Of a stretch of 48,455 bases of DNA, positions 18,600 through 44,890 are shown piece after piece. The stretch is from contig CALEOR010000139.1 of the NCBI GenBank assembly GCA_937910245.1, positions 1 through 48,455 on the forward strand, read 5' to 3'. This DNA comes from an uncultured Verrucomicrobiales bacterium. GTDB lineage: Bacteria > Verrucomicrobiota > Verrucomicrobiia > Verrucomicrobiales > Akkermansiaceae. The notes beneath the pieces are model-generated. The model was not told the origin of the DNA. It searched no databases and saw nothing but the letters and a program-made list of their open reading frames with translations. Both the position numbers and the translations under genes were made by a program. How positions within the stretch are numbered: the first letter of the stretch is position 1; every line of letters starts with the position of its first letter.

Positions 18600-19139
18600 A
18601 TGAGCGGAGATTTAGACCCGGCTGCAGCAGCAGAGTTGCTCCCCCTGGTCTATGAGGAGCTGAAACGACTTGCCTCTTATCGAATGGCTCAAGAAGCCCC
18701 GAATCAGACTTTGCAGGCGACGGCCTTGGTCCACGAAGCCTATCTCCGGCTGACTCATACCGGTGAAGATCCACGTTGGCAAAACAAGGCCCACTTCTTC
18801 AGTGCGGCCGCTGAGGCCATGCGGAGAATTCTCATTGACCGGGCTCGCAAGCGAAACCGAATAAAGAATGGCGGAGAACTGAAACGGACTTTTTACGATC
18901 CATCCCAAATCGAAGCTCCGGCTGGCGATGGGGAATTGCTGGCCATCGACGAGGCTTTGGAGCGATTTTCCAAGATTGATCCCGAGGGTGCCGAGTTGGT
19001 CAAACTCCGCTTCTTTGTGGGGCTCACCCTGCAGGAAATTGCGGAGACCACCGGAGTCTCTCTCCGGACCGTCAAGCGCCACTGGGTTTATGCCCGGGCT
19101 TGGCTCAAGAAGGAATTACAGGAATCCGATTCTTCCTAA
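18600..19139 (+). CDS. ECF sigma factor, TIGR02999-like (kinase-associated type)
   Basis: A 179-aa ORF. It contains LLPLVYEELKRLASYRM, TLQATALVHEAYLRL, FFSAAAEAMRRILIDRAR and VKLRFFVGLTLQEIAE...SLRTVKRHW. This is the characteristic sequence of the Planctomycete/Verrucomicrobial ECF family found next to Ser/Thr kinases. Confidence 0.9.
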   Translation: MSGDLDPAAAAELLPLVYEELKRLASYRMAQEAPNQTLQATALVHEAYLRLTHTGEDPRWQNKAHFFSAAAEAMRRILIDRARKRNRIKNGGELKRTFYDPSQIEAPAGDGELLAIDEALERFSKIDPEGAELVKLRFFVGLTLQEIAETTGVSLRTVKRHWVYARAWLKKELQESDSS

Positions 19140-19144
19140 AAAAA

Positions 19145-19172
19145 TGACCCTCTTTCATTGGAAACGACGCAT
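19145..19172 (+). promoter_or_regulatory. Candidate ECF-type promoter TGACCC-N16-ACGCAT
   Basis: The motif starts 6 nt after the sigma stop codon. It lies 201 nt upstream of the kinase ATG at 19374. Confidence 0.45.
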
Positions 19173-19373
19173 TACTTCAACAGACCCTACCATTGTTGAA
19201 AATGCCAAACCATTCCCCCGTCGCCTCCCCTTCTCTCCATTGCGCTAAGCAAGATCGCCACCGGACTGGAAAACAAGGAAGACGCAGCAAAGTATAAGAA
19301 GTTGGCGGAGGATCTATAACACTGACTTTGACTTCTATCTGAAGCAAGTTTCTCAATCCCACTTTCTGCGACG

Positions 19374-22300
19374 ATGTTTAAAAACGACCCCGACCAAAAC
19401 AATGACCCGGGAGCTGATGGCCTGAACGAAAAGGAGCTCTTCTTCTTGGCCCTGGAAATCGAAGACCCTGCCAAGCGAGCCATCTGGCTGAAGGAAGCTT
19501 GTGGCGGGGACGAGGGTCTCTACCAGCGTTTGGAAGGGCTTTTGGCTGCCGAAGCCACCGCAGGAATGGACTTCCTGAAGCCCGATGAAGATCGCCTCGG
19601 TGAAGTGGTCGCTGAGATTGGGCACGAACTCCGCACTGAAGTGGCCAATCCGGAGGCCGACACCCTTGGCGATGATCAGGATCAGGCGGCCACGGACCTG
19701 CCCGGAGTGGACTTCAACGAGAAACCCGGCGATACTATCGGGCGCTACAAGCTCCTGCAGAAAATCGGCGAAGGCGGCGGCGGCGTGGTCTACATGGCGG
19801 ATCAGACCCAACCGGTGAAGCGCCGGGTGGCCTTGAAGGTCATCAAGCTCGGGATGGACACCCGCCAGGTCGTGGCACGCTTCGAGGCCGAACGACAGGC
19901 CCTCGCCATGATGGAACATCCCAATATCGCGAGCATCCTTGATGCGGGAGCGACCGAGGGCGGACGGCCCTACTTCGTGATGGAACTGGTGCGCGGGGTC
20001 CCCATTACGACCTTCTGTGACGAACACAAGCTCGGCACCAGGGAGCGCCTCGAGCTCTTCCTGCAAGTCTGCGCGGCGGTGCAGCATGCCCATCAAAAAG
20101 GCATCATCCACCGCGACCTTAAGCCGGGCAACGTCCTCGTCACGATGATGGAAGACCGGCCCTTGCCAAAAGTGATCGACTTTGGAATCGCCAAAGCCAC
20201 CCACCAGGATCTGACCGAGAAGACCCTCTTCACGCAGCACGGAAACTTCGTTGGCACACCCACCTACATGAGTCCGGAACAGGCTTCGATGACCGGCTTC
20301 GACATCGACACCCGCAGCGACATCTACAGTCTCGGGGTCCTGCTCTATGAACTGCTGGCGGGCGCACCGCCCTTCGATCACAAGTCGCTCCTCTCCGCCG
20401 GCTACAATGAGATGCGGCGCATCATCGCGGAGGATGAACCGCCCAAGCCGAGCACCCGCTGCACCGAGACCCGGATCCAGTCAAAAACCGCGACCGGATC
20501 GAAGCCGATGAAATTCCACCTCAACCCCTCCTCCCTGAAGGGTGAGCTGGACTGGGTTGTGATGAAGGCCATCGAGAAAGACCGCACCCGGCGCTATGAA
20601 ACCCCGAATGCCTTTGCGGCGGATGTCGAGCGCTACCTAAAGGACGAACCGGTCCAGGCCGCCGCACCGAGTTCCGCCTACAAGTTCAGGAAGTTCGCGC
20701 TGCGCAACAAGACCGCCATCGGGGTGGTGGCAGGATTCGTTCTTATGTTGGTGATTGCAGTTGGCGTTAGCAGTTGGCAGGCGGTCCGGGCCATTCACGC
20801 GGGAAAGGAGTCGGAGAAAGCTCGGCGAGAGGCCGAGAGGGCGCGCGAAAGGACCGAGGATGTGTTGACCTATCTGACTGCGGTGCTCAAGAGTCCTGAT
20901 CCGGATTTTGATGGACGAAAAGTGACGGTGGCCGCGTGCCTTGCTGCTGCTGCCGATGAGTTGGAGATCCGCTTCCCGGATCAGCCGGAGCGCCAGGCGT
21001 TACTGCGGTCCGTGGTCGGGTCGACCTACTATTCCCTGGGGCTTTACCCCGAGGCCATCGAGCTTCAAGACGCTGCTTTGAAACATTTTCTGGAATCGCC
21101 TGATTCGGACCGGGTTGAAACGTTCGATGTGATGCACGAGCTGGCCGACTCCTATTATGCGGTTGGTCGTTGGAGTGAATCCTTGAAGCTGCGGGAGAAG
21201 GTCTTCGCCTTCCGTGGCAAGGTCCTTGGGGAAGCCCATCCCGACACGCTGAAGAGCATGTCCGAGCTGGCCGATTCTTATGCCGACATTGGACGAGAAC
21301 CGGAAGCTCTCAGGATGCGTGAGAAAGAACTGCTCCTGAGTCGGCAAACACTGGGTGAAGAGGACCCCCACACCCTTGGGGTCATGAGCCAACTCGCATT
21401 CTCCTACTCTTCCTTGGGTCGAAAGGCGGATTCGCTCGAGTTGCATTCGAAGGTCTTCGAACTGTCTAAGAAGACGTTTGGGGCCGAGCATGCAAGGACC
21501 ATGTCGGCGATGGGCAATCTGGCTTATTCCTATCACGCTGCGGGCCGGAGCGCAGAAGCACTGGAGTTCCGCGAGAAGGTGCTGGCGCATCATCGGGAAA
21601 AGTTCGGAGAGGAGCATCCCAGTACCCTCTTTGCGATGCATAGCCTGGGTTATTCCTACTATGGCGTCGGTCGCCGGAAGGAGGCCCTGGACCTGCGGGA
21701 AGAGGTGCTCCGACTACGTCGGGAGAAGCTTGGTCCCGTGCACGTTCGAACCCTGCGGGCGATGCGCAACTTGTCCCAAAGCTACAACGACATGGGCCGC
21801 CAGAAGGAGGCGCTCAAACTGGCTCACGAGACTCTGGACAAGTTTCGCGTAGCCCTCGGTGAGTCCGAGAAGGACACCCTTTTCGCGACAAGGAACCTGG
21901 TGGAAATCCTCCGAGACTCCGGGCAGCTGGACAAGGCGATTGAGCTCAGCGAGCAAGGCATCGAGTTGCACCGACGGAAGTATGAAGGAGAACATCCGGT
22001 CACTCTCCGGGCAATCGGCCAATTGGCGCTGCTCTACAGCGAAGCCGGTCGCCATGGGGATGCACTTGAAAAGGGAGAAGCAGTTGTGAAAGGCCTCCGT
22101 CGGAGTCTGGGCGATGCACGGCCCGCCACGCTGGAGGGTAGGGCAAGGCTGGCGACGATCCGTCGCAATGCCGGTCAGATCCCCGCCGCGATCGAGGAAG
22201 GAGTGGAGGTCTTGGCTCGGTGCCATTCGATGCTTGGCGCGGAGGCCCCCCGCACCCTCGAGGTGATGCGCAACCTGGCCCTTTCCTACAGCGCGGAGGA

Positions 22301-22622
22301 GCTCCATGAAGAGGCTCTTGAGCTTGGGAGTGAGGTCTTGGAATTGTTTGGTAAGGTCCTTGGGGAGGAACATCCAGATACCCTGGTGGCGATGGAAAAT
22401 CTGGCGGCGATGACTCAGAGCTCAGGGCTCCAAGAGGAGGCTGTGTCGATTCTGATAGAACTCCTGCCGGTAGCGCGCCGCCTACTCGAGCCCTCCCATC
22501 CTCTGCTGCCGGTCCTCATCGAGGATTTAGCCGATGGTTATGAAAAGACCGGGAACGATAAGGCTGCTCAGGAGCTGCGGAGTGAGCTCAAAGAATTGAA
22601 CGGGAAGCCTGCCGATGAATAG
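19374..22622 (+). CDS. Hanks-type Ser/Thr protein kinase, single TM, C-terminal TPR (TPR_12-like) sensor
   Basis: A 1082-aa ORF with kinase motifs GEGGGGVVY, VALK, HRDLKPGN, DFG and SPE. The TM helix is TAIGVVAGFVLMLVIAVGV. About 12 units of 42 aa follow, with EHPDTL...A..Y..GR..EA periodicity. Confidence 0.92.
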   Translation: MFKNDPDQNNDPGADGLNEKELFFLALEIEDPAKRAIWLKEACGGDEGLYQRLEGLLAAEATAGMDFLKPDEDRLGEVVAEIGHELRTEVANPEADTLGDDQDQAATDLPGVDFNEKPGDTIGRYKLLQKIGEGGGGVVYMADQTQPVKRRVALKVIKLGMDTRQVVARFEAERQALAMMEHPNIASILDAGATEGGRPYFVMELVRGVPITTFCDEHKLGTRERLELFLQVCAAVQHAHQKGIIHRDLKPGNVLVTMMEDRPLPKVIDFGIAKATHQDLTEKTLFTQHGNFVGTPTYMSPEQASMTGFDIDTRSDIYSLGVLLYELLAGAPPFDHKSLLSAGYNEMRRIIAEDEPPKPSTRCTETRIQSKTATGSKPMKFHLNPSSLKGELDWVVMKAIEKDRTRRYETPNAFAADVERYLKDEPVQAAAPSSAYKFRKFALRNKTAIGVVAGFVLMLVIAVGVSSWQAVRAIHAGKESEKARREAERARERTEDVLTYLTAVLKSPDPDFDGRKVTVAACLAAAADELEIRFPDQPERQALLRSVVGSTYYSLGLYPEAIELQDAALKHFLESPDSDRVETFDVMHELADSYYAVGRWSESLKLREKVFAFRGKVLGEAHPDTLKSMSELADSYADIGREPEALRMREKELLLSRQTLGEEDPHTLGVMSQLAFSYSSLGRKADSLELHSKVFELSKKTFGAEHARTMSAMGNLAYSYHAAGRSAEALEFREKVLAHHREKFGEEHPSTLFAMHSLGYSYYGVGRRKEALDLREEVLRLRREKLGPVHVRTLRAMRNLSQSYNDMGRQKEALKLAHETLDKFRVALGESEKDTLFATRNLVEILRDSGQLDKAIELSEQGIELHRRKYEGEHPVTLRAIGQLALLYSEAGRHGDALEKGEAVVKGLRRSLGDARPATLEGRARLATIRRNAGQIPAAIEEGVEVLARCHSMLGAEAPRTLEVMRNLALSYSAEELHEEALELGSEVLELFGKVLGEEHPDTLVAMENLAAMTQSSGLQEEAVSILIELLPVARRLLEPSHPLLPVLIEDLADGYEKTGNDKAAQELRSELKELNGKPADE

Positions 22623-22652
22623 CCGTTTCTCATACTCACCGTTAATGTCAAA

Positions 22653-22976
22653 ATGTTAGCCCGCATCATGACCATCGCCGGGCTCTTGGCTCTGGCCAGC
22701 ACCTGTTTACAGGCTGAGTCACTTGACATCGAAAACATAGACGTCGGCGATTCTACGGTCACCTGGAGGTGGATCCCGACCCAAGTCGATACTAATCCGC
22801 CATCTGACACTGGTCTCTACTGAGTCCGGGCATTTGATACGGAAAATCCTGATGATCTCGATCTCATCGCAAACGTTTCCACCGCGGCCGAGATTGTCCG
22901 GCCTCGTATCCCGGCACTGCAAGAGCATTTGGATCTGGATCCGGAGTTCGTCAACCTACTGAGGGATCTACGGTAA
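22653..22976 (+). pseudogene. Small secreted-protein ORF interrupted by an in-frame TGA (22821-22823)
   Basis: The ORF reads MLARIMTIAGLLALASTCLQAES (signal peptide)...DSTVTWRWIP...GLY-TGA-VRAFDTENPD...LRDLR-TAA. The same frame stays open and coding-like for 51 codons past the TGA. Confidence 0.3.
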
Positions 22977-23250
22977 AAGGTGAATGAGCAGGATGAGAAT
23001 TCCAGAGAGCGCTCCAATCACAACAGCACCTTCCAGCGCTTGCCCCACAAAAATGGAAACACCAGGGGCAAGCCCGTGTTTTTAACGGGAGCGGGAAATC
23101 AAACGCCAGAAAACCGGGTCTTTGCGAAAGTGATTCCTCACCGAAGGACTCAGGTCTGGTCTTTGAATCATCCCATCTGTGGACAATCAGCTAATTTTTC
23201 TCCCAACCCCCGCAGTAAAAGCAGGGTCTTAAAAATAAATCACAATCCAG

Positions 23251-23278
23251 TGATCCTTTTTGTTGCGAAAGAACGCAT
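23251..23278 (+). promoter_or_regulatory. Candidate ECF-type promoter TGATCC-N16-ACGCAT
   Basis: A copy of the bipartite motif, lying 47 nt upstream of the ATG at 23326. Confidence 0.45.
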
Positions 23279-23325
23279 CACCTAACGAGCCCCACTCAAG
23301 AGGTCTCCAAAACAAAAAATTAACG

Positions 23326-24300
23326 ATGGAAATTCATTCGCTTCAACCAAACCACCGCCCTCAGGAAAAGACAGATCCGATCCACTCCGGAGGAATCATC
23401 CCCAAGTTCCGGGCGTCCCTTCTGGTTGCCAGCCTCGGCTTCGCCACCCTTCCGGCCGGCGCTGCCACCATGTTTACAGAGTTCTTCTCCTTTGGTGACA
23501 GCCTCACCGATTCGGGGAACGTTGCCCTTGCAGTTGGCCCCCCCTATCCTTCGGGCCGCTACTCGGACGGCCCGACCTGGGCTGAGTATCTCTCAAACGA
23601 CCACCTCGGCCTCGGCCCACATGAACCTTCAGTGGCGGGTGGAAACAATCATGCCTGGGGTGGCGCACGGACCGGCGGTGGTGGACTGACTCCTACCGTT
23701 CTTCAGCAGGTCGGTGGTTATCTCGCCAGTGAAGGCACCTTCCAATCGACCTCTCTTGTGAGCGTCTGGGCGGGAGCGAACGATTTCTTTGATACTGCCA
23801 CCGATCCCGGCGGTCCGGTGAGTCCAAGCGTTTCGGTCGGTAACATCAGCGCGGCCATTGATCTTCTCGCAGGAGCCGGAGTTCGATATATCATCATCCC
23901 CAACTTCCCCGACTTCGGGGCCGCTCCCGGATTGGCAGGTGGCCCCGGATCAGCGGGCGCAAGCGCGTGGGTTCAGGGATACAATTCCCTCCTTTCCAGC
24001 GAGCTGGACGCACAACGGACCGCTCTCGGTATCTCAATTTACGAAGTCGATCTCTACACACTCGGTGCAGACATTGGTGCAAATCCTGGCAAATACGGGT
24101 TCACGAACGGAACTGATGCCGTCGTCCCGGACTTCACTCTTGATCCCACCCTCACGGCCTACTGGGACGGTGTCCATCCCACAACCGCAACGCACGCGAT
24201 CTTTGCCCAGGAAGCTTTCAACAGCATCCCGGAACCAAGCACCGGCGTTCTCGCCATCTTCGCCTTTGGGATCGCCTGCACCCGGAGAACACGCCGTTAA
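23326..24300 (+). CDS. SGNH/GDSL hydrolase (lipase/esterase) with PEP-CTERM sorting tail
   Basis: I chose the start at MEIHSL. The GDSL block I is FSFGDSLTDSGN, and the catalytic DGVHPT lies near the C-terminus. The C-terminal IPEPSTGVLAIFAFGIACTRRTRR is PEP plus TM plus a basic tail. Confidence 0.85.
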   Translation: MEIHSLQPNHRPQEKTDPIHSGGIIPKFRASLLVASLGFATLPAGAATMFTEFFSFGDSLTDSGNVALAVGPPYPSGRYSDGPTWAEYLSNDHLGLGPHEPSVAGGNNHAWGGARTGGGGLTPTVLQQVGGYLASEGTFQSTSLVSVWAGANDFFDTATDPGGPVSPSVSVGNISAAIDLLAGAGVRYIIIPNFPDFGAAPGLAGGPGSAGASAWVQGYNSLLSSELDAQRTALGISIYEVDLYTLGADIGANPGKYGFTNGTDAVVPDFTLDPTLTAYWDGVHPTTATHAIFAQEAFNSIPEPSTGVLAIFAFGIACTRRTRR

Positions 24301-24357
24301 ACTTCAAGCCGTCAAAGCATAGGTTACCCCCCGCAGATGCTTTGTAGCCTGCTGATT

Positions 24358-24391
24358 CGTCCTTCCCGGCATGCCGGGGAGGACGTTTTTT
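24358..24391 (+). terminator. Rho-independent terminator
   Basis: The hairpin CGTCCTTCCCGGCA/TGCCGGGGAGGACG is nearly perfect, with one G-U pair. TTTTTT follows. It lies 58 nt after the stop at 24300. Confidence 0.8.
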
Positions 24392-28250: not shown

Positions 28251-28348
28251 CGAGAAAGCTAAGAGCCAACCGCTGAAAGCCAATCGCCATGGTGCTTAGG
28301 GCCTTTGGCTCCGAACCGATCCCCAGCTGATCGCACTGCCGGGCGTCC
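28251..28348 (+). repeat. Copy A of a conserved ~100-nt intergenic element (candidate structured leader RNA)
   Basis: About 88% identical by eye to 37799-37893. It is non-coding in all frames. It contains the hairpin AGCCAA-UC-GCC...GGC-CU-UUGGCU. It lies ~80-175 nt upstream of the ATG at 28428. Confidence 0.5.
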
Positions 28349-28427: not shown

Positions 28428-29330
28428 ATGAAAGGACGCTTTATCCACGACGCCGGAGGCGAATCCTTCGAGCTTGAAGAACATAGTGCCATCGGCCGCA
28501 GTCCGGATTCCGTGGTCCCGGTTGCCGATCCACGGGCATCCCGACGTCATGCCGTCATCCGGCGTCAGGATGATGGCTTCTGGTTCTTCGACCTGGGAAG
28601 TAGCAATGGCAGCTACCTCAATGGCAGGCGGGTCACCACCGCACAGCTCTTGAAAAACGGCGATATGGTCATGATCGGCAACCATCAACTCCGCTTCGAA
28701 GGGACTTCTCTACCCGCAACCCAATCGAGCGCAACCCACTCGCAACAGACCATGATCGGGGTGCAGTCAAAGGACGCCCTCATCCTGGTGAGCGACATTC
28801 AGGGCTTCACCGCGCTCTCGGAGCAACTCTCCCCCGACGAACTCGCCCCCATCATGGGCTCGTGGTATGCCGCCATCGGCCTGGTCCTCGAGGAGCACGG
28901 TGCGACTCTCGACAAGTTCATCGGCGACTGCGTCCTCGCCTATTGGCTGAACACCGCCACACCGACCCGCCTCGCCGCCATGCATGCCGCCCGCGCCATG
29001 CAAAGGGTCGCCGACGAAGTTCAGCGAGATCACCGTGAATCCCTCGCCCGGGTTGACCTGAGTTTTAAAACCGGGGCCGCCATCCACCTTGGATCGGTCG
29101 CCTATGGCGCCATCAGTGCAGGTGAATTCACCCTCTTGGGAGACGCCGTCAATATCACCTTCCGCCTGGAATCCCTCACCCGCAATATCAACAAGCCCGT
29201 CCTCGTCAGCGGCGAATTCCTAACGGGATGGGACAGCGGCCAGGCTCTCTGCGACTCCTGTGGCTCGCATCAGGTCAAAGGCCGTGCCGAACCCGTCGAG
29301 GTCTTCTCTCTCGAACGCGCACCCGAGTGA
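28428..29330 (+). CDS. FHA domain-containing class III adenylate/guanylate cyclase
   Basis: A 300-aa ORF. The FHA core is IGRSPDS...ASRRHAVIRR...DLGSSNGSYLNG. The cyclase core is ILVSDIQGFTALSE...KFIGDCVLAYW...GDAVNITFRLES. Confidence 0.9.
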   Translation: MKGRFIHDAGGESFELEEHSAIGRSPDSVVPVADPRASRRHAVIRRQDDGFWFFDLGSSNGSYLNGRRVTTAQLLKNGDMVMIGNHQLRFEGTSLPATQSSATHSQQTMIGVQSKDALILVSDIQGFTALSEQLSPDELAPIMGSWYAAIGLVLEEHGATLDKFIGDCVLAYWLNTATPTRLAAMHAARAMQRVADEVQRDHRESLARVDLSFKTGAAIHLGSVAYGAISAGEFTLLGDAVNITFRLESLTRNINKPVLVSGEFLTGWDSGQALCDSCGSHQVKGRAEPVEVFSLERAPE

Positions 29331-29349: not shown

Positions 29350-29898
29350 ATGCCCGACTACACCCGATGGCTCAACGCCTCCACCAACTCGGGTGAAGAC
29401 GACCTCTTTGCCGGCCTTTACACCGAACTGAAGAAAATCGCAGGCGGCCGCATGGCTCTGGAACGGCAGGGCGGCACTCTCGATGCCACCGCCCTCGTCC
29501 ACGAAGCCTGGCTCCGCCTCCAGAAGTCCGCCCCGGAGAAATGGCGCGACCGCAAGCAATTCTTCGCCGCCGCTGCCGAGGCCATGCGCCGCATTCTTGT
29601 CGAATCCGCCCGCCGTCGCCTCGCCGCGAAACGCGGTGCCGGGGAGGACGCCGTCCCGCTCGATGGCCTCGATCTCCCGTCGCCCGTCGCCGATGAACGC
29701 CTCCTCGGCATCCACGAAGTCCTCGACCAACTCGCCCTCGAGGACGAACTCAAGGCCCACATCGTCAAACTCCGCTTCTTCGGCGGCATGAATCACGACG
29801 AGATTGCCGCCCTTCTCGAAATCAGCGAAAAAACCGTCCGCCGCCACTGGTCCCTCGCCAAAATCTGGCTCTACCGGGCCATGAAAAAAGAAGACTGA
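29350..29898 (+). CDS. ECF sigma factor, TIGR02999-like (kinase-associated type)
   Basis: I chose the start at MPDYTRWLNAS, parallel to MADVTRWLNAS of the 39981 paralog. It lies 19 nt after the cyclase stop. The same signature blocks as in 18600-19139 are present (LVHEAWLRL, FFAAAAEAMRRILVESAR, VKLRFFGGM...EKTVRRHW). Confidence 0.9.
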   Translation: MPDYTRWLNASTNSGEDDLFAGLYTELKKIAGGRMALERQGGTLDATALVHEAWLRLQKSAPEKWRDRKQFFAAAAEAMRRILVESARRRLAAKRGAGEDAVPLDGLDLPSPVADERLLGIHEVLDQLALEDELKAHIVKLRFFGGMNHDEIAALLEISEKTVRRHWSLAKIWLYRAMKKED

Positions 29899-29905: not shown

Positions 29906-29933
29906 TGTCCGTTTTTCCCACCCTTTCACGCGT
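29906..29933 (+). promoter_or_regulatory. Candidate ECF-type promoter TGTCCG-N16-ACGCGT
   Basis: A copy of the bipartite motif in the 46-nt sigma-kinase spacer. The -10-like box ends 11 nt before the kinase ATG at 29945. Confidence 0.5.
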
Positions 29934-34211: not shown

Positions 34212-35039
34212 CTACCTCCGGCGCCGTGCCAGGAGCCATCCAAACGCGGAGACCAGCAGGACGCTCGATGACGGTTCGGGAACCGGCGTAAATGACTGAC
34301 CGGCCGTAAGCCCATCAATGTCATTTTTGACAGCCGATAATCCAACCAAATCAAAGAATCCAATGTTCGTTCCAAAAGCGCCGGCTGCGGGCGACTCCGG
34401 GGCTGACCCGAGAAAGCCCATACCGGCCACTAACTCAGTTCCTAAGAGCATTGAATGGTCTAATGACGGCCCCCCACTCGTGGTGGGAAATACGAAGGCC
34501 TGAATCGTTGGATCCGTCGGATAGGGTGCGAATGGGAGACCCAAGTCAAAAGGATCCGACATGGTCTGCGGAGCACCGTCTATTGTGACGTAGAAAAATC
34601 CAAATCCTGAGACCTCCGACAGAACCGCTTGCCCGCCGGAATCAACGACTTCAATTCCGAAAAGGTGAAGGCAACCTGGTAGAATTGGGTCAGGCACAAG
34701 AGGCGTCCCCACAACAGTTTCGGAAGTAAACGAGAAAAACGTGGATCCGTCGGGCTGGTCCGTTCTCACGGCCGAATGCCTCCCACCACCAACGACCATG
34801 GGCGGACCGGTCGTCGGAAACTCCCCCTCAATCTCACCATCAAAAAAGTTCTCCGTGTGAAAAGTGATGCTGGCTCCGTTTGCATCGGACGGATGTGCGA
34901 AGCCCGACCAGGCTACGACACCAATCAAACTCAGTTGCGAGAGGGAGGAACAAGCGAGGAACTCGCGATTAAGGATTTTTTTCATGATACGAATTGGGGG
35001 TTGTTTTGGTTTCTTTTGCCGGGCGCTTTTGCCCGTCAT
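34212..35039 (-). CDS. PEP-CTERM domain secreted protein
   Basis: A 275-aa ORF with C-terminal VPEPSSSVLLVSAFGWLLARRRR. The start at 35039 lies 6 nt downstream of a promoter-like motif, suggesting a leaderless mRNA. The alternative start MKKILNREF at 34985 gives a more canonical signal peptide. Confidence 0.8.
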   Translation of the reverse strand: MTGKSARQKKPKQPPIRIMKKILNREFLACSSLSQLSLIGVVAWSGFAHPSDANGASITFHTENFFDGEIEGEFPTTGPPMVVGGGRHSAVRTDQPDGSTFFSFTSETVVGTPLVPDPILPGCLHLFGIEVVDSGGQAVLSEVSGFGFFYVTIDGAPQTMSDPFDLGLPFAPYPTDPTIQAFVFPTTSGGPSLDHSMLLGTELVAGMGFLGSAPESPAAGAFGTNIGFFDLVGLSAVKNDIDGLTAGQSFTPVPEPSSSVLLVSAFGWLLARRRR

Positions 35040-35045: not shown

Positions 35046-35073
35046 ATGCGTATTCCGGCTAAAAAAACGGACA
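35046..35073 (-). promoter_or_regulatory. Candidate ECF-type promoter TGTCCG-N16-ACGCAT (minus strand)
   Basis: The minus strand reads TGTCCG-TTTTTTTAGCCGGAAT-ACGCAT-GGGGGG-ATG. This is the only minus-strand copy, and it is correctly oriented for the minus-strand gene. Confidence 0.5.
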
Positions 35074-35447: not shown

Positions 35448-36707
35448 GTGATGAACAGCAATTTAACCAAGCGAGGCTTCCTCTCCCTGACCGTCGCACA
35501 ATTTTTTGGGGCGGCGAACGACAACCTTCTGAAGGTCGTACTCAGTTTTGCCGTGGGAACAGGCCTCTGGTATACCTTGCTAGGAGAGGGAGGAGTGGCT
35601 TACATCGGGCTTTGTTTTACGATGCCGTTCATTTTTCTTTCGGGTTACGCAGGACAATTGGCGGATCGAATCAGTAAACAAAAGATCTCCTACTGGGTGA
35701 AAGTCGCAGAGATCGGGATCACTTTGGTGGCGATGCTGGGATTCTGGCAGGGTAATTTATGGATCACCATGGGAGCGATGATTCTCCTGGCGATTCAAAG
35801 TGCTTTTTTTGGACCGGCCAAGTATGGCATGATTCCCGAGTTGGTGGACAAGGGAGATCTCAGCCGCGCCAATGGCGTGATCAATATGTCGACGAACATC
35901 GCCGTGATCGCGGGAACCGTGTTGGCGGGGCATGTGTCTGATGCCTATCAAGGGATCGACACGGATATGCCGCTTTCCTGGCTGCCGGGAGTGGCATTGG
36001 TAGGTGTCGCCATTCTGGGTTGGGTCGCGATTTCATTCATGCCTCGAATGGAGGCGATGGATCCTGATCTGAAGTTCGACTGGAATCCATTCGGGGTTTA
36101 CCTGACGGCCTTGAAAGAAATGAGCCGTAGTCCTTTGCTGACCGTGGCCTGTGCGTGGTCGACCTTCTACATGATCGGGATGCTGGCACTGACGATCTTG
36201 TTGGCGTATCCGAAACTGTTCGTGCTAAGTGACAGCGAAGGAGCTATGCTGCTCGGAGTGCTGGGAGTGTCAATTGGCATGGGGAGTGTGCTGGCGGGGC
36301 TGATTTCCGGACACACCATTAAACCGAAACTGATTCCGGTCGGGGCGATTGGAATGACGATCTTCTTCGCGGCCTTGGGACTGGCTCCCATGAATTACGG
36401 AATCGTGGCAACTTTCATTGCCGGTGTCGGCGTGTTTGCGGGTTTCTACATCGTTCCCTTGCAGGCACTTCTCCAGCATCTCTCACCCGATGACGAACGG
36501 GGCCGGTTTCTGGGAACCGCAAACGCGATGTCCTTTGTCGCGAGTTCGATAGGGCTCTTGATTTATATATTTACAGTCCGGGTGCTTGGGATGGAACCCA
36601 ATCGGGTGTTCTTAATTTGTGCAGGGTTGGCGTTTTTCGGGACGGGTGCCTTGATCTGGCGGATGCGTAAACTGATGGCGAAGGAAGCGAATAAAGAGGC
36701 TGCCTGA
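35448..36707 (+). CDS. MFS transporter (LplT-like lysophospholipid-transporter type)
   Basis: A 419-aa ORF with ~12 TM helices. The N-terminus FLSLTVAQFFGAANDNLLKVVL resembles the MFS module of LplT/Aas-type proteins. Confidence 0.8.
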   Translation: MMNSNLTKRGFLSLTVAQFFGAANDNLLKVVLSFAVGTGLWYTLLGEGGVAYIGLCFTMPFIFLSGYAGQLADRISKQKISYWVKVAEIGITLVAMLGFWQGNLWITMGAMILLAIQSAFFGPAKYGMIPELVDKGDLSRANGVINMSTNIAVIAGTVLAGHVSDAYQGIDTDMPLSWLPGVALVGVAILGWVAISFMPRMEAMDPDLKFDWNPFGVYLTALKEMSRSPLLTVACAWSTFYMIGMLALTILLAYPKLFVLSDSEGAMLLGVLGVSIGMGSVLAGLISGHTIKPKLIPVGAIGMTIFFAALGLAPMNYGIVATFIAGVGVFAGFYIVPLQALLQHLSPDDERGRFLGTANAMSFVASSIGLLIYIFTVRVLGMEPNRVFLICAGLAFFGTGALIWRMRKLMAKEANKEAA

Positions 36708-36747
36708 ACCCCTGAATGAACGAACGATGGCTGATGTGATCCGTTGG
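36473..36747 (+). repeat. Direct repeat copy 1: MFS 3' end plus the first 7 codons of an ECF sigma gene
   Basis: It aligns with 39679-40001 at ~88% identity, apart from a ~48-nt indel after the MFS stop. ATGGCTGATGTGATCCGTTGG (36727-36747) matches the start MADVTRW of the intact sigma gene at 39981. Homology then stops abruptly. Confidence 0.8.
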
Positions 36748-37798: not shown

Positions 37799-37893
37799 CG
37801 AGAAAGCTAAGTGCCAACCGCTAAAAGCGAATCGCCATGGTGCGTAGGGCCCTTCGCTCCGCCCCGATCCCTTGATCGCCCTGCCGGGCATCC
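37799..37893 (+). repeat. Copy B of the conserved ~100-nt intergenic element (candidate structured leader RNA)
   Basis: It aligns with 28251-28348. The hairpin here is AGCGAA...UUCGCU, against AGCCAA...UUGGCU in copy A, a compensatory C:G to G:C change. It lies ~90-185 nt upstream of the ATG at 37985. Confidence 0.5.
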
Positions 37894-39532: not shown

Positions 39533-39599
39533 AGAAGCGGCCCAAGCTGGAAAGGCAAAACGATCAGCGATGAAAATCTCCGCAAAACAGCAAGGTGGG

Positions 39600-39684
39600 C
39601 TATTTTAGCTGAACGGGTTTGGCGAAAGTGCGCATCGATCTCTCGACGGCGGGAAAGAAGTCCTTGTTCCCCCGCTGCCCAGCA
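39600..39684 (-). pseudogene. Internally deleted remnant of a paralog of the 45641-47077 gene
   Basis: Positions 39600-39622 match the last codons plus stop of 45641-47077 (...AKPVQLK* vs ...AKPVRLK*). Positions 39617-39685 match its internal segment 46427-46495 (KDFFPAVERSMRTFAK vs KDFLPAVEKSMRTFAK). The two pieces are joined at the shared hexamer TTTGGC. Confidence 0.7.
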
Positions 39685-39912
39685 TCTCTCACCCAATGAT
39701 GAACGGGGCCGGTTTCTGAAAACCGCAAACGCAATGTCCTTTGTCGCGAGTTCGATAGGGCTCTTGATTTATTTGTTTGCAGTCGAAGTGCTCGGGATGG
39801 AACCCAATCGTGTTTTCCTGATTTGTGCAGGGTTGGCGTTTTTCGGGACGGGAGCTTTGATCTGGCGGATGCGCAAGCTGATGGCGAAGGAAGCTGGCAA
39901 AGAGGCCGCCTG
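39679..39912 (+). pseudogene. 3' fragment (77 codons) of an MFS gene paralogous to 35448-36707; part of direct repeat copy 2 (39679-40001)
   Basis: It translates to QHLSPNDERGRFLKTANAMSFVASSIGLLIYLFAVEVLGMEPNRVFLICAGLAFFGTGALIWRMRKLMAKEAGKEAA*. The intact gene has QHLSPDDERGRFLGTANAMSF...KEANKEAA*. There is no upstream coding continuation. It is fused to the previous remnant at CCAGCA. Confidence 0.8.
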
Positions 39913-39980
39913 ACCCCCAAATAGAGGGCCCGCATTGCCGATTGACCCGCCCCCCGTTGCAGTGGTGAAATGAACGAACG

Positions 39981-40526
39981 ATGGCTGATGTGACCCGTTG
40001 GCTGAATGCCTCCACCTCCTCCCGCGATGAGGAGATGTTCGCCGGTTTGTATGCCGAGCTCCACAAGATCGCGCGCGGCCGCATGGCGGGAGAGCGACCG
40101 GAACAAACCCTTGATGCGACCGGCCTGGTCCATGAGGCTTGGTTGCGGCTCGAGAAATCCGCACCGGAGGAGTGGCAAAATCGCAAGCACTTCTTCGGGG
40201 CGGCGGCCGAGGCGATGCGGCGCATCCTGGTGGAAGCGGCCCGCCGGCGCATGGCGGCCAAGCGCGGAGAGGGAGAGGGAGCGGTGCCGCTCGACGAAGC
40301 CCTGCCCATCCCCTCGGCGATGCCCGACGAACGGCTTCTCGCCGTCCACGAAGTGCTTGATCAACTCGAGAAGGAACACGAAATGGATGCCCAAATTGTG
40401 AAGCTGAAGTTCTTCGGCGGCCTGAAGCAGGACGAAATCGCGGCCCTCCTGGAAGTGAGCGAAAAGACGGTGCAACGGCATTGGATCATGGCCAAGACCT
40501 GGCTTTATCAAGCCTTGCAAGAATAG
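39981..40526 (+). CDS. ECF sigma factor, TIGR02999-like (kinase-associated type)
   Basis: A 181-aa ORF, ~70% identical by eye to the 29350-29898 product. The same signature blocks are present (LVHEAWLRL, FFGAAAEAMRRILVEAAR, VKLKFFGGL...EKTVQRHW). Confidence 0.9.
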   Translation: MADVTRWLNASTSSRDEEMFAGLYAELHKIARGRMAGERPEQTLDATGLVHEAWLRLEKSAPEEWQNRKHFFGAAAEAMRRILVEAARRRMAAKRGEGEGAVPLDEALPIPSAMPDERLLAVHEVLDQLEKEHEMDAQIVKLKFFGGLKQDEIAALLEVSEKTVQRHWIMAKTWLYQALQE

Positions 40527-40581
40527 ATTGAAGGCCCCGCAGTCTGCTTTGCACCAAGCCAAAAAAAAACTTCAAATCCGA

Positions 40582-40609
40582 TGACCCTTTTTTCCGGGTC
40601 ACAACGCAT
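40582..40609 (+). promoter_or_regulatory. Candidate ECF-type promoter TGACCC-N16-ACGCAT
   Basis: A copy of the bipartite motif. The -10-like box ends 8 nt before the MFS ATG at 40618. It is embedded in an ~85-nt cassette duplicated at 42060-42145. Confidence 0.5.
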
Positions 40610-40617
40610 GTTATTCC

Positions 40618-41943
40618 ATGGAGCCACAATCAGCCACCTTCCCCTCACCCGAAGCCGCCGTCGACCCGATGGACATCGACAGTAGCGGAGACGGTGTAAC
40701 GCCTCGCAACTGGATCTCGCTCATCGCGGTGTTAATCGTGCAGGCGCAGAACGCGTTTAACGACAACTTCGTCAAGTTCGTCCTCCTGGGACTCGCGATC
40801 GCAGCCTTCAAAGGCGGATTCATCGGCGACAATATTGAACACATCCTCGGGGCGATGATTCCCATCCCCTTCATCTTGCTGGCACCGGTCGCCGGCTATC
40901 TCTCCGATCGCTATTCCAAGCGCACCATTATTGTTATTAGCCTGATCGGCCAACTGACCATCTTCGCGCTCATCGCCATCAGCCTGATGTCGCACTTCGT
41001 CTACGGCGCACTGCTCGGCTATTTTCTGCTCGCCGTGCAGTCGACCGTCTTCTCACCGGCCAAGCAGGGCATTCTCAAGGAACTGATCGGCTCCGAGCGC
41101 CTCGGCTTCGCCAATGGCCTGATGCAAATGCTGACGATGGTCGGCATTCTCGGTGGCATGTTCCTCGGTGGCATGTTTTTCACCTCGCTCAATGAGAGCG
41201 GAGGAGACGAGTGGCGCTCCGCCCTGATCCCCACCCTCGTTGCGGGCTTGGCCGCCATCGTCCCACTGGTGCTGGTGCGCTGGATTCAAGCGACCCCTGC
41301 CCACCCAAAGATGCATTTCACCAGAGAAGTATGGGGTCGCCATTTCGTGCATCTCAAGGAACTGTTCAGGAACCGTATTCTGCGGCTGACTTCGCTGGCA
41401 ATTTCGAGCTACTGGTTTCTCGCCAATTTCATCGGCCTCGCGGTGATCGGATTCGGCAAGGAACTCAAACCCGATGGCGCTCCGGGTGCCTCGGCCTTGA
41501 TGATGGCCTTGATCGGCATCGGCTTAATCATTGGCAGCATCGTCGTCTCAACTCTCAGCAGGCACCGCATCCGGCTCGACATCGTGCCACTGGGCGTCGC
41601 CGGAATCACCGCCGGTTTGGTCGCTCTTGGCACTCTGCCTGCCGGCAGCGTCGCGTGGAATTTCAGCCTCGGCTTCATCGGCTTTTCCTCGGGTTTCCTT
41701 CTGGTTCCGCTCAACGCATTTCTCCAGGACCGTGCCTCGGAAGCCACTCGCGGGCGCATTCTCTCCGCCAACAACTTGCTGGCGTCTTTTGTCGGACTCG
41801 TCTCGATCGCCATTGGGCTCTTCATGACCAGCGCCCTTGATTGGGAGGCCTCCACCCAGGTGCTGATCTATGCGGGTTTCGGGTCCATCATTCTCCTCGT
41901 CTTGACCTTGCACTCCATGCCCATCCTGCGCCGGGCCCAATGA
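40618..41943 (+). CDS. MFS transporter (LplT-like), located between sigma and kinase
   Basis: A 441-aa ORF with ~12 TM helices. The N-terminal IVQAQNAFNDNFVKFVLLGLAI parallels VAQFFGAANDNLLKVVLSFAV of the 35448 paralog. Confidence 0.8.
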   Translation: MEPQSATFPSPEAAVDPMDIDSSGDGVTPRNWISLIAVLIVQAQNAFNDNFVKFVLLGLAIAAFKGGFIGDNIEHILGAMIPIPFILLAPVAGYLSDRYSKRTIIVISLIGQLTIFALIAISLMSHFVYGALLGYFLLAVQSTVFSPAKQGILKELIGSERLGFANGLMQMLTMVGILGGMFLGGMFFTSLNESGGDEWRSALIPTLVAGLAAIVPLVLVRWIQATPAHPKMHFTREVWGRHFVHLKELFRNRILRLTSLAISSYWFLANFIGLAVIGFGKELKPDGAPGASALMMALIGIGLIIGSIVVSTLSRHRIRLDIVPLGVAGITAGLVALGTLPAGSVAWNFSLGFIGFSSGFLLVPLNAFLQDRASEATRGRILSANNLLASFVGLVSIAIGLFMTSALDWEASTQVLIYAGFGSIILLVLTLHSMPILRRAQ

Positions 41944-42109
41944 GATCTGCCAGACGCCAGGACACACCACCATTGACGATCTGTCGCTCTCCTCAAAGTC
42001 AACAAGAAGACAGCGCCGCAACATTCGCTGATGGCCAGAACTTGCAGAAGTCGATGTAAGGTCCAGCAGCCTGCTTTGCACCAAGTCATAAAAAATACTT
42101 CAAATCCGA

Positions 42110-42137
42110 TGTCTTTTTTTTCCGGGCCAAGACGCAT
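42110..42137 (+). promoter_or_regulatory. Candidate ECF-type promoter TGTCTT-N16-ACGCAT
   Basis: A copy of the bipartite motif. The -10-like box ends 8 nt before the kinase ATG at 42146. Confidence 0.5.
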
Positions 42138-42145
42138 GTGATACT

Positions 42146-44890
42146 ATGAAACCGCCATCTGCCCGAGATCTCTTCGCCCGCGCTCTTGATTTAAATCCGG
42201 ACGATCGAGATTCTTTTCTGGCCGCAGAGTGTGGGAAAAACGCCGAGCTCCGCCTTGAGGTCCAACGCCTTCTGGTCGATTCCGAGAAGGCTCAGTCCTT
42301 CTTTTCCGACGAAGACGGGGCCACCATCGGAATGGAAGAATTTGACGACACCTTCACCGAAGCAGAGGGCGACGTCGTCGGCCCCTACACCCTGCGCCAA
42401 CAGATCGGCGAGGGCGGCTTCGGCACTGTTTGGATGGCCGAGCAAAGCGTGCCCATCTCTCGCATGGTGGCGCTCAAGGTCATCAAGGCCGGGATGGACA
42501 CCAAGCAGGTCCTCGCCCGCTTCGAGGCCGAGCGCCAGGCCGTCGCGATGATGGATCACCCCAATATCGCCAAAGTCCTCGACGCCGGTGCCACTTCCAC
42601 CGGCCGACCCTACTTCGCGATGGAGCTCGTCAAGGGCATCCCCATCACCCAGTTCTGCGATCAGCAGAAGTTTGGCCCCAAACGCCGCCTCGAGCTCTTC
42701 CGCGACGTCTGCGCCGCCGTCCAACACGCCCACCAGAAGGGCATCATCCACCGCGACCTCAAGCCCTCCAACATCATGGTCACCCTCGCCGCCGATGTCC
42801 CGGTGGTGAAGGTCATCGACTTCGGCATCGCCAAGGCCACCCAAAACAAGCTCACCGAAAAGACCCTCTTCACCCGCTTCGAGCAGTTCCTCGGCACTCC
42901 GGTCTACATGAGCCCCGAGCAGGCTGCGATGAGCGCGATCGACATCGACACCCGCTCAGACATCTACAGCCTCGGCGTGTTACTTTACGAACTGCTGGCA
43001 GGTGCGCCGCCCTTCGATCAGAAGTCACTCCTCTCTGCCGGTTACGATGAGATGCGCCGCATCATCGCAGAGGACGAGCCTCCCAAACCCAGCACCCGCT
43101 GCACCGAGACCCGGATCCAGGCAAGCACCGCGACGGGCACCGGATCGAAGCCGAAGAAATTTCATATCAGCGCCAGCGCCCTAAAGGGCGAACTGGACTG
43201 GATCGTGATGAAGGCCATCGAGAAGGACCGCACCCGGCGCTACGAGACTGCCAACGCCTTCGTGGCCGACATCGAGCGCTACCTCGATGACGAGCCGGTG
43301 GAGGCCGCCGCGCCAAGTACCACCTATAAGTTGAAGAAGTTCGCGCGGCGAAATCGGACTGCAGTTGCTTTTGCCACCACGATCACCGTTCTCTTGATTG
43401 CGGGGATCTTCGGAACCACGTGGTTTGCGCTGTCCTCTCAGGAGGCCCGAATCGATGAGAAACAGGCCAAGGAATACGCACTTAAGAGCGGGGAAGAAAC
43501 CAAAAAGGCCCTCGAGCGAACTAAAGTCGCATTAAATCAATCCCGCTACGAAGAAGCCAAAACCTGGTTGGAAAGAGCGCGACTGGCAATAATGCAGAAG
43601 AACAAATTCGCGGCCGCCATGATGGCCGCGAAAGGCTTGGGATTTCGAGGATTTGGTGCGGAGCGGCAGACCGAGGAGTTCCGGAAAGCCAATCCGGTGC
43701 TCCTGGAGAAAGAGAAGCCGGAATTCGAGGAGCTCATGCAAATCGCGATGGACGGCAACGTTCCGTGCCGTCCAATTTGGCGATCTCCTCTTGGCTCGCA
43801 TAAAGAAAGGGTCTCCACAGTGACCTTCAGCCCGGATGGCGCCACCCTCGCCAGCGGAAGTTGGGATGAGACGATCAAGCTCTGGGACCTCTCGAGCGGA
43901 AAGGAGATCCGAACCTTCGGGCACCAAGACACGGTCATGAGTGTGGCCTTCAGCCCGGATGGCAGCACCCTCGCCAGCGGGAGTGGGGACGGGACGATCA
44001 AGCTCTGGGACCTCTCGAGCGGAAAGGAGATCCACACCTTCGGGCACCAAGACCTGGTCTTGAGTGTGGCCTTCAGCCCGGATGGCAGCACCCTCGCCAG
44101 CGGGAGTGCCGACAAGACGATCAAGCTCTGGGACCTCTCGAGCGGAAAGGAGATCCACACCTTCGGGCATCAAGACAGGGTCATGAGTGTGGCCTTCAGC
44201 CCGGATGGCAGCACCCTCGCCAGCCGGAGTGACGACAAGACGATCAGGCTCTGGGACCTCTCGAGCGGAAAGGGGATCCGCACCTTAAGGCACCAAGACT
44301 TGGTCAGTAGTGTGGCCTTCAGCCCGGATGGCACCACCCTCGTCAGCCGGAGTTACGACAAGACGATTAAGCTTTGGATTGTGGACAACTCACCGCCCGA
44401 TCTGGCAGGCTACCTCGATCCCCGAAATCCCTGGTACCGACTTGAGGGATCAGGGATTTCCTTGAATTCCCAAACCGGCGATCGACTTGTGGATAGGGAA
44501 CCGCAGTTCCTGAATGTTTCTCCCGTCAGCCATGTGGGCATCCTCCACAGCACCCGCTCGCCGGAAAAAAAGAACCGCGCTCTCTTTTGGAATTATCTGC
44601 ACGCCGGGAACTGGAACAGCGCCGGGGTTCTGTATGCGCGCTTGACCGACCCAGCCTCAAAAGAATCAGCCCGGGAGATGACCGTTCTGAGACGCGCGGC
44701 CAAGGCGCAATCCGCCTTCGACGGCGGACTCTACCGTCATGCCAGGTGGCACCTGGAAGAGATCACTCCGCTGTTGAAGCCCGATGAAACCGATCCAGCG
44801 ATGTTGAGAGCGAAGGAGCTGATCGAGCGATTGAAAGACGACTTGGATCAACGCGAGGCCTCCGACGGTCGGAAGGATTCGCCAAAGTAA
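42146..44890 (+). CDS. Hanks-type Ser/Thr protein kinase, single TM, C-terminal WD40 sensor
   Basis: A 914-aa ORF. The catalytic domain is identical in amino acids to that of the 29945 kinase over ~245 residues. The TM helix is VAFATTITVLLIAGIFGTTWF. A coiled region follows, then ~4.8 WD40 repeats (VAFSPDGSTLASGS.D.TIKLWDLSSGKEI.TFGHQD) and a ~165-aa tail. Confidence 0.92.
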   Translation: MKPPSARDLFARALDLNPDDRDSFLAAECGKNAELRLEVQRLLVDSEKAQSFFSDEDGATIGMEEFDDTFTEAEGDVVGPYTLRQQIGEGGFGTVWMAEQSVPISRMVALKVIKAGMDTKQVLARFEAERQAVAMMDHPNIAKVLDAGATSTGRPYFAMELVKGIPITQFCDQQKFGPKRRLELFRDVCAAVQHAHQKGIIHRDLKPSNIMVTLAADVPVVKVIDFGIAKATQNKLTEKTLFTRFEQFLGTPVYMSPEQAAMSAIDIDTRSDIYSLGVLLYELLAGAPPFDQKSLLSAGYDEMRRIIAEDEPPKPSTRCTETRIQASTATGTGSKPKKFHISASALKGELDWIVMKAIEKDRTRRYETANAFVADIERYLDDEPVEAAAPSTTYKLKKFARRNRTAVAFATTITVLLIAGIFGTTWFALSSQEARIDEKQAKEYALKSGEETKKALERTKVALNQSRYEEAKTWLERARLAIMQKNKFAAAMMAAKGLGFRGFGAERQTEEFRKANPVLLEKEKPEFEELMQIAMDGNVPCRPIWRSPLGSHKERVSTVTFSPDGATLASGSWDETIKLWDLSSGKEIRTFGHQDTVMSVAFSPDGSTLASGSGDGTIKLWDLSSGKEIHTFGHQDLVLSVAFSPDGSTLASGSADKTIKLWDLSSGKEIHTFGHQDRVMSVAFSPDGSTLASRSDDKTIRLWDLSSGKGIRTLRHQDLVSSVAFSPDGTTLVSRSYDKTIKLWIVDNSPPDLAGYLDPRNPWYRLEGSGISLNSQTGDRLVDREPQFLNVSPVSHVGILHSTRSPEKKNRALFWNYLHAGNWNSAGVLYARLTDPASKESAREMTVLRRAAKAQSAFDGGLYRHARWHLEEITPLLKPDETDPAMLRAKELIERLKDDLDQREASDGRKDSPK
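43799..44390 (+). repeat. Tandem 123-bp (41-codon) WD40-coding repeats, ~4.8 copies
   Basis: Repeat units start at 43799, 43922, 44045, 44168 and 44291. Units 2 and 3 differ at only ~7 of 123 nt, and the differences cluster in two codon patches. Confidence 0.9.

Follow-up and report, generated by a model that had tools for sequence, protein, structure and literature searches.

How does each membrane kinase keep to its own sigma factor when several paralogous pairs lie side by side in one genome, and which parts of such a pair can be exchanged for others? These questions are raised by contig CALEOR010000139.1 of an uncultured Verrucomicrobiales bacterium of the family Akkermansiaceae (GenBank assembly GCA_937910245.1), the 48,455 nucleotides (nt) of which, read on the forward strand, make up the window analyzed here. 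Within 26 kb of this window, three sigma factors of the extracytoplasmic function (ECF) class are each associated with a Hanks-type Ser/Thr kinase. The open reading frames (ORFs) of all three sigma-kinase modules were found exactly where an initial annotation, made from the letters of the sequence, had placed them, and the sigma and kinase families as well as the sensor types that it proposed were matched by hidden Markov model (HMM) searches. We regard it as probable that these are three modules of the ECF43 type, in which an intrinsically weak ECF sigma factor is activated via phosphorylation by a single-pass kinase of the PknS/PknT type. As such, the modules are of an already known kind, common in the Planctomycetota-Verrucomicrobiota-Chlamydiota (PVC) group, and would not surprise a specialist. 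What the locus adds is a natural experiment: it combines an old module with a recent pair and holds different sigma factors, N-terminal segments and sensors together with a kinase core that is nearly identical within the pair.

The three sigma factors, all encoded on the forward strand, are sigma1 (18600-19139, 179 amino acids (aa)), sigma2 (29350-29898, 182 aa, its start set by alignment with sigma3) and sigma3 (39981-40526, 181 aa). They score 198, 178 and 186 bits, respectively, against the NCBIfam model TIGR02999, the curated cut-off of which is 126 bits, and match PF07638 nearly end to end (E 5e-55 to 3e-40; 4.6e-55 for sigma1). All three show the minimal ECF layout, with the domains σ2 and σ4 only. 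When they are aligned to a canonical ECF sigma factor of the same window, each has a Thr in the third position of the motif equivalent to DAED, and these residues are the putative phospho-acceptors: Thr41 of sigma1 (nt 18720-18722, motif QATA), Thr47 of sigma2 (nt 29488-29490, motif DATA) and Thr47 of sigma3 (nt 40119-40121, motif DATG). The hallmark of ECF43 is a co-encoded Hanks kinase, and its consensus in this place is QTTA, the Thr being conserved in 88% of the members (PMC13147305, PMC8999054, PMC8103513). With TIGR02999 and PF07638 passed and an ECF43-type Thr in place of the acidic σ2.2 motif, the placement of the sigma factors in a kinase-associated ECF group is borne out. To judge by sequence, the three modules fit ECF43; two considerations tell against taking that assignment as final, namely, that it rests on TIGR02999 and PF07638, the motif and the kinase neighbor rather than on ECF-group HMMs, and that other kinase-linked groups, such as ECF59-62 and ECF217, exist in related phyla (PMC7826278). 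In those groups, as in ECF267 and ECF283, a sigma factor lies beside a Ser/Thr kinase with no anti-sigma factor, and they are frequent in Planctomycetota (PMC7826278). The window modules share that arrangement but, whereas the groups in question are described in the literature as keeping DAED-like acidic residues or using a Ser acceptor, the window sigma factors have Thr and pass TIGR02999. Among the ORFs neighboring any of the modules, no Pfam match to an anti-sigma family was found, although silence of Pfam is not proof of absence.

The kinases, too, lie on the forward strand, and a Hanks kinase stands beside each sigma gene, separated from it by a spacer of 234 nt in module 1 and 46 nt in module 2, and by one inserted gene in module 3. 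Kinase1 (19374-22622, 1082 aa) consists of an N-terminal segment (aa 1-122), the Hanks domain (aa 123-443) and a transmembrane (TM) helix at about aa 448-468, followed by a coiled coil and some ten TPR_12 units. Kinase2 (29945-32599, 884 aa) has a three-helix segment at aa 1-77, the kinase domain at aa 78-398 and the TM helix at aa 402-424, and then a coiled coil and an array of TPR_12/TPR_10 units. In kinase3 (42146-44890, 914 aa), the segment (aa 1-78), the kinase domain (aa 79-401) and the TM helix (aa 405-427) are followed by a coiled coil, by five WD40 repeats of 41 aa each (about aa 548-750) and by a C-terminal tail of about 165 aa without a family match. The Pkinase scores are 149-153 bits in all three, and the sensor matches amount to 277 bits (kinase1) and 214 bits (kinase2) for TPR_12/TPR_10 and 199 bits for WD40 (kinase3), such that all three have the single architecture proposed at the outset, in which an N-terminal segment and a kinase domain are joined through one TM helix to repeats of the TPR (kinases 1 and 2) or WD40 (kinase3) type. 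The G-loop, the VALK Lys, the αC Glu, and the HRDLKPxN, DFG and SPE motifs are intact in all three kinases, which should therefore be catalytically competent. A hydropathy scan yields one true hydrophobic helix per kinase, with a K/R-rich stretch before it and a charged, coiled-coil-like one behind it; given this single helix and the positive-inside rule, the kinase domain would be cytoplasmic and the TPR and WD40 arrays would lie outside, predicted to be periplasmic. The sensors, thus, differ as claimed, whereas their description as ligand-binding was an assumption. At the nucleotide level, the WD40 blades are encoded by 4.5 tandem copies of a 123-nt unit with 91% matches (43820-44377), and the five clear blades of kinase3 compare with a usual number of seven.

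The two kinase-activated sigma factors that have been studied provide the framework for interpreting these modules. In EcfP of Vibrio parahaemolyticus, STTA replaces the DAED of region 2.2, and the second Thr is phosphorylated by PknT; the protein is intrinsically inactive, and phosphorylation by the neighboring membrane kinase enables it to bind RNA polymerase (Iyer et al. 2020, as described in PMC8999054 and PMC8103513). In EcfK of Xanthomonas citri, the motif is QATE, and both Thr51 and a linker residue, Thr106, are phosphorylated by PknS, a kinase in which an 83-aa N-terminal extension without an assigned function precedes the kinase domain, with a TM helix and TPRs in the periplasm coming after it; AlphaFold2 (AF2) models the extension as three to four helices, and it is invisible in the crystal (PMC13147305). 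PknS (9eed_A) is the best match in the PDB for residues 1-430 of kinase2 (E 7.6e-50), the alignment beginning at residue 7 of the query and residue 14 of PknS, and it also comes first in the PDB in a search with the N-terminal profile alone (E 1.8e-5, PknS residues 10-56). The likeness between the window modules and the EcfK/PknS pair (PDB 9EED) hence extends from the sigma gene adjoining that of a single-pass Hanks kinase, with an extension, a TM helix and periplasmic repeats, to the N-terminal extension itself, which is about 80 aa long in PknS and homologous in sequence to the window segments. The Thr of σ2.2 is common to all, in QATE in EcfK compared to QATA, DATA and DATG here, and the one acidic residue that EcfK keeps is comparable to the Asp of sigma2 and sigma3. 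There are differences as well: PknS is similar to a low degree only overall (E 7.6e-50 for the cytoplasmic part), with three TPRs compared to about 7-10 TPR_12/TPR_10 units or a WD40 array; it lacks a Cys shared by at least 90% of the aligned N-terminal segments; and EcfK controls a type VI secretion system, whereas the window is without genes for such a system. EcfP and PknT can be compared by their published description only. On that basis, the Thr in the third position is shared, and an envelope-related output, polymyxin resistance, has a counterpart in the lipid and envelope genes that bear a promoter-like motif in the window, whereas sigma2 and sigma3, unlike EcfP, keep one Asp. In the PVC group, single-pass kinases with periplasmic WD40 or TPR arrays are common and have expanded through lineage-specific duplication and recombination (PMC11032199). 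The window kinases resemble them in having a cytoplasmic Pkinase domain, one TM helix and, at the C-terminus, WD40 or TPR arrays, including the highly repetitive WD40 units; no link to sigma factors and no N-terminal segment are described there (PMC11032199), whereas every kinase of the window belongs to a sigma module.

By analogy with these systems, a periplasmic cue would act on the TPR array of kinases 1 and 2 or on the WD40 array of kinase3, and the cytoplasmic kinase domain would be activated in response. The kinase would then phosphorylate its partner sigma factor at Thr41 (sigma1) or Thr47 (sigma2 and sigma3), and possibly also in the linker between σ2 and σ4, as in EcfK, and the added negative charge would allow the sigma factor to bind the β' clamp of RNA polymerase, so that transcription could start. 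Several points weigh against this scheme. Every mechanistic step rests on homology. One Asp is retained in sigma2 (DATA) and in sigma3 (DATG), and for that reason these two sigma factors may not be fully inactive without the phosphate. Furthermore, the T51A variant of EcfK is still functional, and a Thr of the linker is of importance in that protein (PMC13147305).

The N-terminal segment is the part of the kinase through which partner choice could be exercised. It had been described as a conserved helical stretch of about 70-100 aa; the segment is real, but its conserved helical part spans only about 55 aa and is followed by a disordered linker, the whole segment being 122 aa long in kinase1 but 77-78 aa in the other two. 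An AF2 model built on a 37-sequence alignment places helices at residues 4-13, 17-28 and 32-57, with a predicted local distance difference test (pLDDT) score of 84-90. An HMM derived from the three copies matches only the three kinase ORFs within the window, the motif recurs among related kinases, and an exhaustive profile search of 1.84 billion proteins retrieved 57,126 cluster representatives at E <= 1e-3, superseding a word-indexed protein search with the 77-aa segment alone that had returned five fragments. Among the fetched loci, the motif is present in 64 of the 72 kinases that adjoin a sigma gene compared to one of the nine that do not (Fisher p = 3e-6), an association tempered by the small size of the control set, five members of which come from one array. 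When the distance between kinase domains is controlled for, distances between sigma factors and between N-terminal segments remain correlated (partial r = 0.32, permutation p about 0.001), but this mirror-tree signal is weak, and genetic linkage alone could produce it. On this evidence, the segment is probably the part of the kinase that goes with the sigma factor and recognizes or docks it.

Could the segment be, instead, a built-in anti-sigma domain, through which the kinase holds its sigma factor at the membrane and lets it go upon a signal, with phosphorylation being secondary or serving the release? The co-occurrence of the segment with an adjacent sigma gene would be expected in that case too, no separate anti-sigma factor is detected by Pfam beside the modules, and the two to ten tandem copies of the segment in some proteins are what one would expect of an independent binding module. 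Moreover, the pattern R..FL...C..D..LR.EV..LL is loosely similar to the helical stretch surrounding HxxxCxxC in zinc anti-sigma domains, a resemblance that is presumably a lead only. Yet the segment has no match in Pfam even at E <= 10, zf-HC2, RskA and the other anti-sigma families included; a Foldseek comparison of the AF2 model with the PDB yielded matches of E 2.4 or more only, none of them to an anti-sigma factor; the three predicted helices compare with four in class I anti-sigma domains; and the homologous EcfP and EcfK are intrinsically inactive and are activated by phosphorylation. An origin of the segment from an anti-sigma domain is, accordingly, unsupported by the Pfam and Foldseek comparisons, and we consider the built-in anti-sigma explanation unlikely. 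The same Foldseek comparison, having returned no informative match for the modeled domain, lends nothing to the docking role that we favor and in that respect counts against it.

The segment has several further peculiarities. Cys28 of kinase2, in helix 2/3 (FL..ACG.D), is the residue conserved in at least 90% of the aligned segments. The tandem copies come from the search of cluster representatives, where some kinases (P0126 and P0129) carry them ahead of the kinase domain; in P0126, ten copies precede a Pkinase domain at 520-783. In P0164, a single ORF combines Sigma70_ECF, the segment and Pkinase, either as a natural fusion or as an artifact of gene calling. In five Verrucomicrobiota loci (L006, L015, L019, L059 and L073), the ORF neighboring the sigma gene is convergent with it, on the opposite strand, and contains the N-terminal motif; these ORFs score about 95-105 bits for the kinase domain compared to about 500, and their products may be divergent kinases or pseudokinase partners. 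On a 2.1-Mb contig (L081/L082; ENA ERZ25072999 ctg321827), the genes of at least six TPR or WD40 kinases follow one another in tandem, with integrase and transposase genes among them. The catalytic domains of these kinases are 75-80% identical to that of kinase2, and they have neither a nearby sigma gene nor the N-terminal motif; an array of this kind forms part of the non-adjacent control set.

How general is the pairing? A scan with the sigma alignment, limited to one genome per species, identified 594 confirmed relatives, and the best 80 of these 594 were taken as the related loci, which come from Verrucomicrobiota, Planctomycetota and Acidobacteriota, the best sigma identity being 53%. Loci in which the sigma gene has at least 1.5 kb of flank on each side were counted as testable; there are 64 of them, and in 60 (94%) a kinase ORF is no more than 600 nt away, in most cases immediately downstream and on the same strand. 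The closest relatives of kinases 2 and 3 (70-72% identity) are likewise encoded directly downstream of a PF07638 sigma factor, their C-terminal parts being without a Pfam assignment. A lack of conserved adjacency in related genomes had been named as one observation that would undo the initial annotation; adjacency is, on the contrary, the rule, among the closest relatives of the kinases as well. Beyond the pair itself, no wider neighborhood is conserved, because the only window gene other than the kinase that recurs beside the sigma genes is that for an FHA-cyclase, in one of the 80 loci.

This FHA-cyclase gene (28428-29330, forward strand; Pfam FHA 63.8 bits, Guanylate_cyc 39.6 bits), which encodes an FHA domain joined to a class III cyclase-like domain, ends 19 nt before sigma2 and, for that reason, probably belongs to the same operon. 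A homolog (E 3e-51) lies directly downstream of a TIGR02999 sigma gene in a Verrucomicrobiales metagenome-assembled genome (MAG) (L024, 8791-9720), where there is no kinase within 8 kb of the sigma gene, and, as a possible second partner of this family of sigma factors, the FHA-cyclase would read phospho-Thr. Such an arrangement invites the thought that the main substrates of the kinases lie elsewhere, for instance among FHA proteins such as this cyclase, and that the sigma factors are controlled mostly through their own expression. The probable operon with sigma2 and kinase2, the case of L024, the many kinases of this kind that have no nearby sigma gene in related genomes, and the acidic residue kept by sigma2 and sigma3 would all be in keeping with that possibility. 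Nevertheless, two members of the family are directly phosphorylated by the neighboring kinase, the acceptor Thr is kept in three of three window sigma factors, and the adjacency holds in 94% of the testable loci; we therefore see little reason to expect that the sigma factors are bystanders, and that the kinase directly phosphorylates its sigma factor remains the interpretation that we prefer.

The history of the modules shows which of their parts are free to move. Sigma2 and sigma3 are 70% identical to each other, whereas sigma1 is 41-46% identical to these two but 56-59% identical to sigma factors from other genomes. Because sigma1 is closer to foreign sigma factors than to its neighbors, and given the identity of the other two, the three modules that had been presented simply as paralogous are indeed paralogs but consist of one old paralog (module 1) and a recent pair (modules 2 and 3). 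Identity between kinases 2 and 3 is 87% for residues 1-430, with no similarity left beyond the TM helix, whereas kinases 1 and 2 align collinearly in their periplasmic parts, at 38% identity (E 5e-73). Kinases 2 and 3 being alike up to the TM helix and unrelated after it, and the sensors of kinases 1 and 2 being collinear, the sensor apparently has been exchanged at the TM boundary in the recent pair. The proposal of a common core with swapped sensors thus holds for kinases 2 and 3, with the qualification that the near-identity of their core is due in part to concerted evolution. Within the catalytic domains, positions 30269-30693 are exactly identical, over 425 bp and on the same strand, to 42473-42897, compared to a background identity of about 75%. 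Identity falls gradually on both sides of this tract (from 93% to 83% to 70%), and third-codon identity, 99% within it, drops to 54-79% in the sequence on either side. Outside the tract, nucleotide identity is about 70-75% both for the N-terminal segments of the two kinases and for the sigma2 and sigma3 genes. The tract looks like the product of a recent gene conversion, which has left the N-terminal segment, the sigma genes and the sensors untouched. That the near-identical core is an assembly artifact, a collapsed repeat or a chimera, as an exact 425-bp repeat with copies 12.2 kb apart on a probably metagenomic contig might suggest, is very improbable, considering that identity decays gradually on both sides with synonymous differences reappearing first, the pattern of gene conversion rather than of a pasted block, that both copies sit in unique flanks with sigma2/3 and the N-terminal segments differing by about 30%, and that the case for the architecture is independent of the tract.

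Module 3 bears the trace of another rearrangement. The genes and families of the three modules are as first stated, but this module is not contiguous: between sigma3 and kinase3 lies a gene for a transporter of the major facilitator superfamily (MFS), similar to LplT and the N-terminal part of Aas (40618-41943, forward strand; MFS_1 101 bits, NF006386 247 bits and NF008397 106 bits, the latter two both under their own cut-offs). No counterpart of this gene was found at the sigma-kinase junction in the 80 related loci. The segment 42041-42163, on the same strand, was recognized by repeat search and alignment as a duplicate of the 122 bp at 40514-40635, 80% identical to it, and contains a relic of the 3' end of sigma3, the spacer, in which the motif is degenerate, and six initial codons, while the MFS gene itself begins with a copy of the kinase initiation region (MEPQSA compared to MKPPSA). 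Since the sigma3-kinase3 junction is thus duplicated around the MFS gene, the latter seems to have been inserted into a once-adjacent pair and to have taken a copy of the start region of the kinase.

The spacers that follow the three sigma genes have a sequence in common, TG(A/T)YC-N18-CGC(A/G)T. Six copies of the pattern TGWYC-N18-CGCRT were counted in the window, where 0.86 would be expected, and none of 100 shuffles reached six, although the six copies include paralogous and duplicated sequence and so do not amount to six independent events. All six are immediately upstream of gene starts, and a degenerate seventh precedes kinase3. On the forward strand, the copies are TGATCC-N17-CGCAT at 17988-18015, 30 nt before a small membrane ORF (18045-18410) located ahead of sigma1; TGACCC-N17-CGCAT at 19145-19172, between the sigma1 stop codon and kinase1; TGATCC-N17-CGCAT at 23251-23278, at the 5' end of the gene for a PlaA-like GDSL lipase (23260-24300); TGTCCG-N17-CGCGT at 29906-29933, which ends 12 nt before the kinase2 ATG; TGACCC-N17-CGCAT at 40582-40609, which ends 9 nt before the ATG of the MFS gene; and the degenerate TGTCTT-N17-CGCAT at 42109-42136, before kinase3 in the duplicated spacer. 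On the reverse strand, TGTCCG-N17-CGCAT at 35046-35073 is located upstream of a gene (34212-35039) that encodes a PEP-CTERM protein of 275 aa without a Pfam domain, with the C-terminal sorting signal VPEPSSSVLLVSAFGWLLARRRR and a TIGR02595 score of 22.5 bits compared to the cut-off of 16.

A related motif, TGAGG-N17-CGCAY, is enriched in the sigma-to-kinase spacers of other PVC genomes. The pattern TGA[GC][GC]-N16-18-CGCA[TC] is present in 12 of 56 sigma-to-kinase spacers of other genomes compared to 0.8% of random 250-nt pieces, with none in 56 regions upstream of sigma genes and one in 56 on the opposite strand, and alignment of the foreign spacers on their CGCA[TC] sites reveals, counted from CGCA, an enriched TGA at positions -23 to -21 and, upstream of it, a T-rich tract. 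By sequence pattern, TGAYCC-N17-CGCAT is probably the sigma-dependent promoter, located before the kinase genes rather than the sigma genes. Against such a role stands the position of the motif: with only 9-12 nt between its end and the start codons of kinase2, the MFS gene and kinase3, the mRNAs would be near-leaderless. Scans of the window for sigma-70 promoters and intrinsic terminators remained at the chance level, a terminator at 24358-24385, after the GDSL gene, being the sole clear feature. Separately, the spacer between sigma1 and kinase1 contains five stop codons.

If the candidate promoter is genuine, its place before the kinase gene and not before the sigma gene would create positive feedback on the kinase, so that the circuit would amplify the sensor rather than the regulator. 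The same motif ahead of the genes for the LplT-like MFS transporter, the GDSL lysophospholipase-like protein, the PEP-CTERM protein and the small membrane ORF would indicate an output in the envelope and its lipids. In such a design, the catalytic core and the periplasmic sensor would both be exchangeable parts, the former through gene conversion and the latter through swaps at the TM boundary. Put together, these elements yield a tentative joint scheme that we regard as conceivable but far from established: a fast-diverging segment would recognize the sigma factor and keep paralogous pairs insulated, the core would be homogenized between paralogs, the sensor would be swapped at the TM helix, and the kinase promoter (TGAYCC/TGAGG-N17-CGCAT) would amplify the sensor and drive lysophospholipid and envelope genes. 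Activation of a sigma factor through direct phosphorylation has been demonstrated for two pairs only, EcfP/PknT and EcfK/PknS, both from Proteobacteria, while the PVC bacteria hold most of the diversity of the family and no studied example. The locus therefore bears on kinase-sigma specificity among many paralogs, on the role of the N-terminal extension and on envelope and lysophospholipid output.

The remaining signaling genes of the window appear to stand apart from the modules. A fourth ECF sigma factor (1026-1604) belongs to a different family, TIGR02989-like but below the cut-off, and is paired with a vWA/YfbK protein; a Metallophos protein (8703-9434), ApaH/PrpA-like but below every cut-off, is encoded 10 kb away on the other strand. 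Both the ECF/vWA pair and this PPP phosphatase had been counted among the members of a diversified sensor battery, together with the FHA-cyclase, but we found no link between the former two and the three modules. The FHA-cyclase is the only one of the additional members that is physically coupled to a module, and the remainder of the battery is unlinked.

The region as a whole is reshaped by segmental duplication. In addition to the duplicated sigma3-kinase3 junction, there are three further dispersed repeats, with 89-93% identity: the 3' end of an MFS gene (35448-36707) is copied just upstream of sigma3 (36473-36712 and 39679-39918); a 73-bp repeat (28251-28323 and 37799-37871) is shared by the divergent intergenic regions upstream of the FHA-cyclase gene and of a GltS-like gene; and a 54-bp repeat connects 39618-39671 with 46427-46480, the latter within an ORF at 45599-47950. 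Elsewhere in the window, the dihydrolipoyl dehydrogenase encoded at 6440-7822 is 88-92% identical to proteins from MAGs of Akkermansiaceae and Verrucomicrobiaceae.

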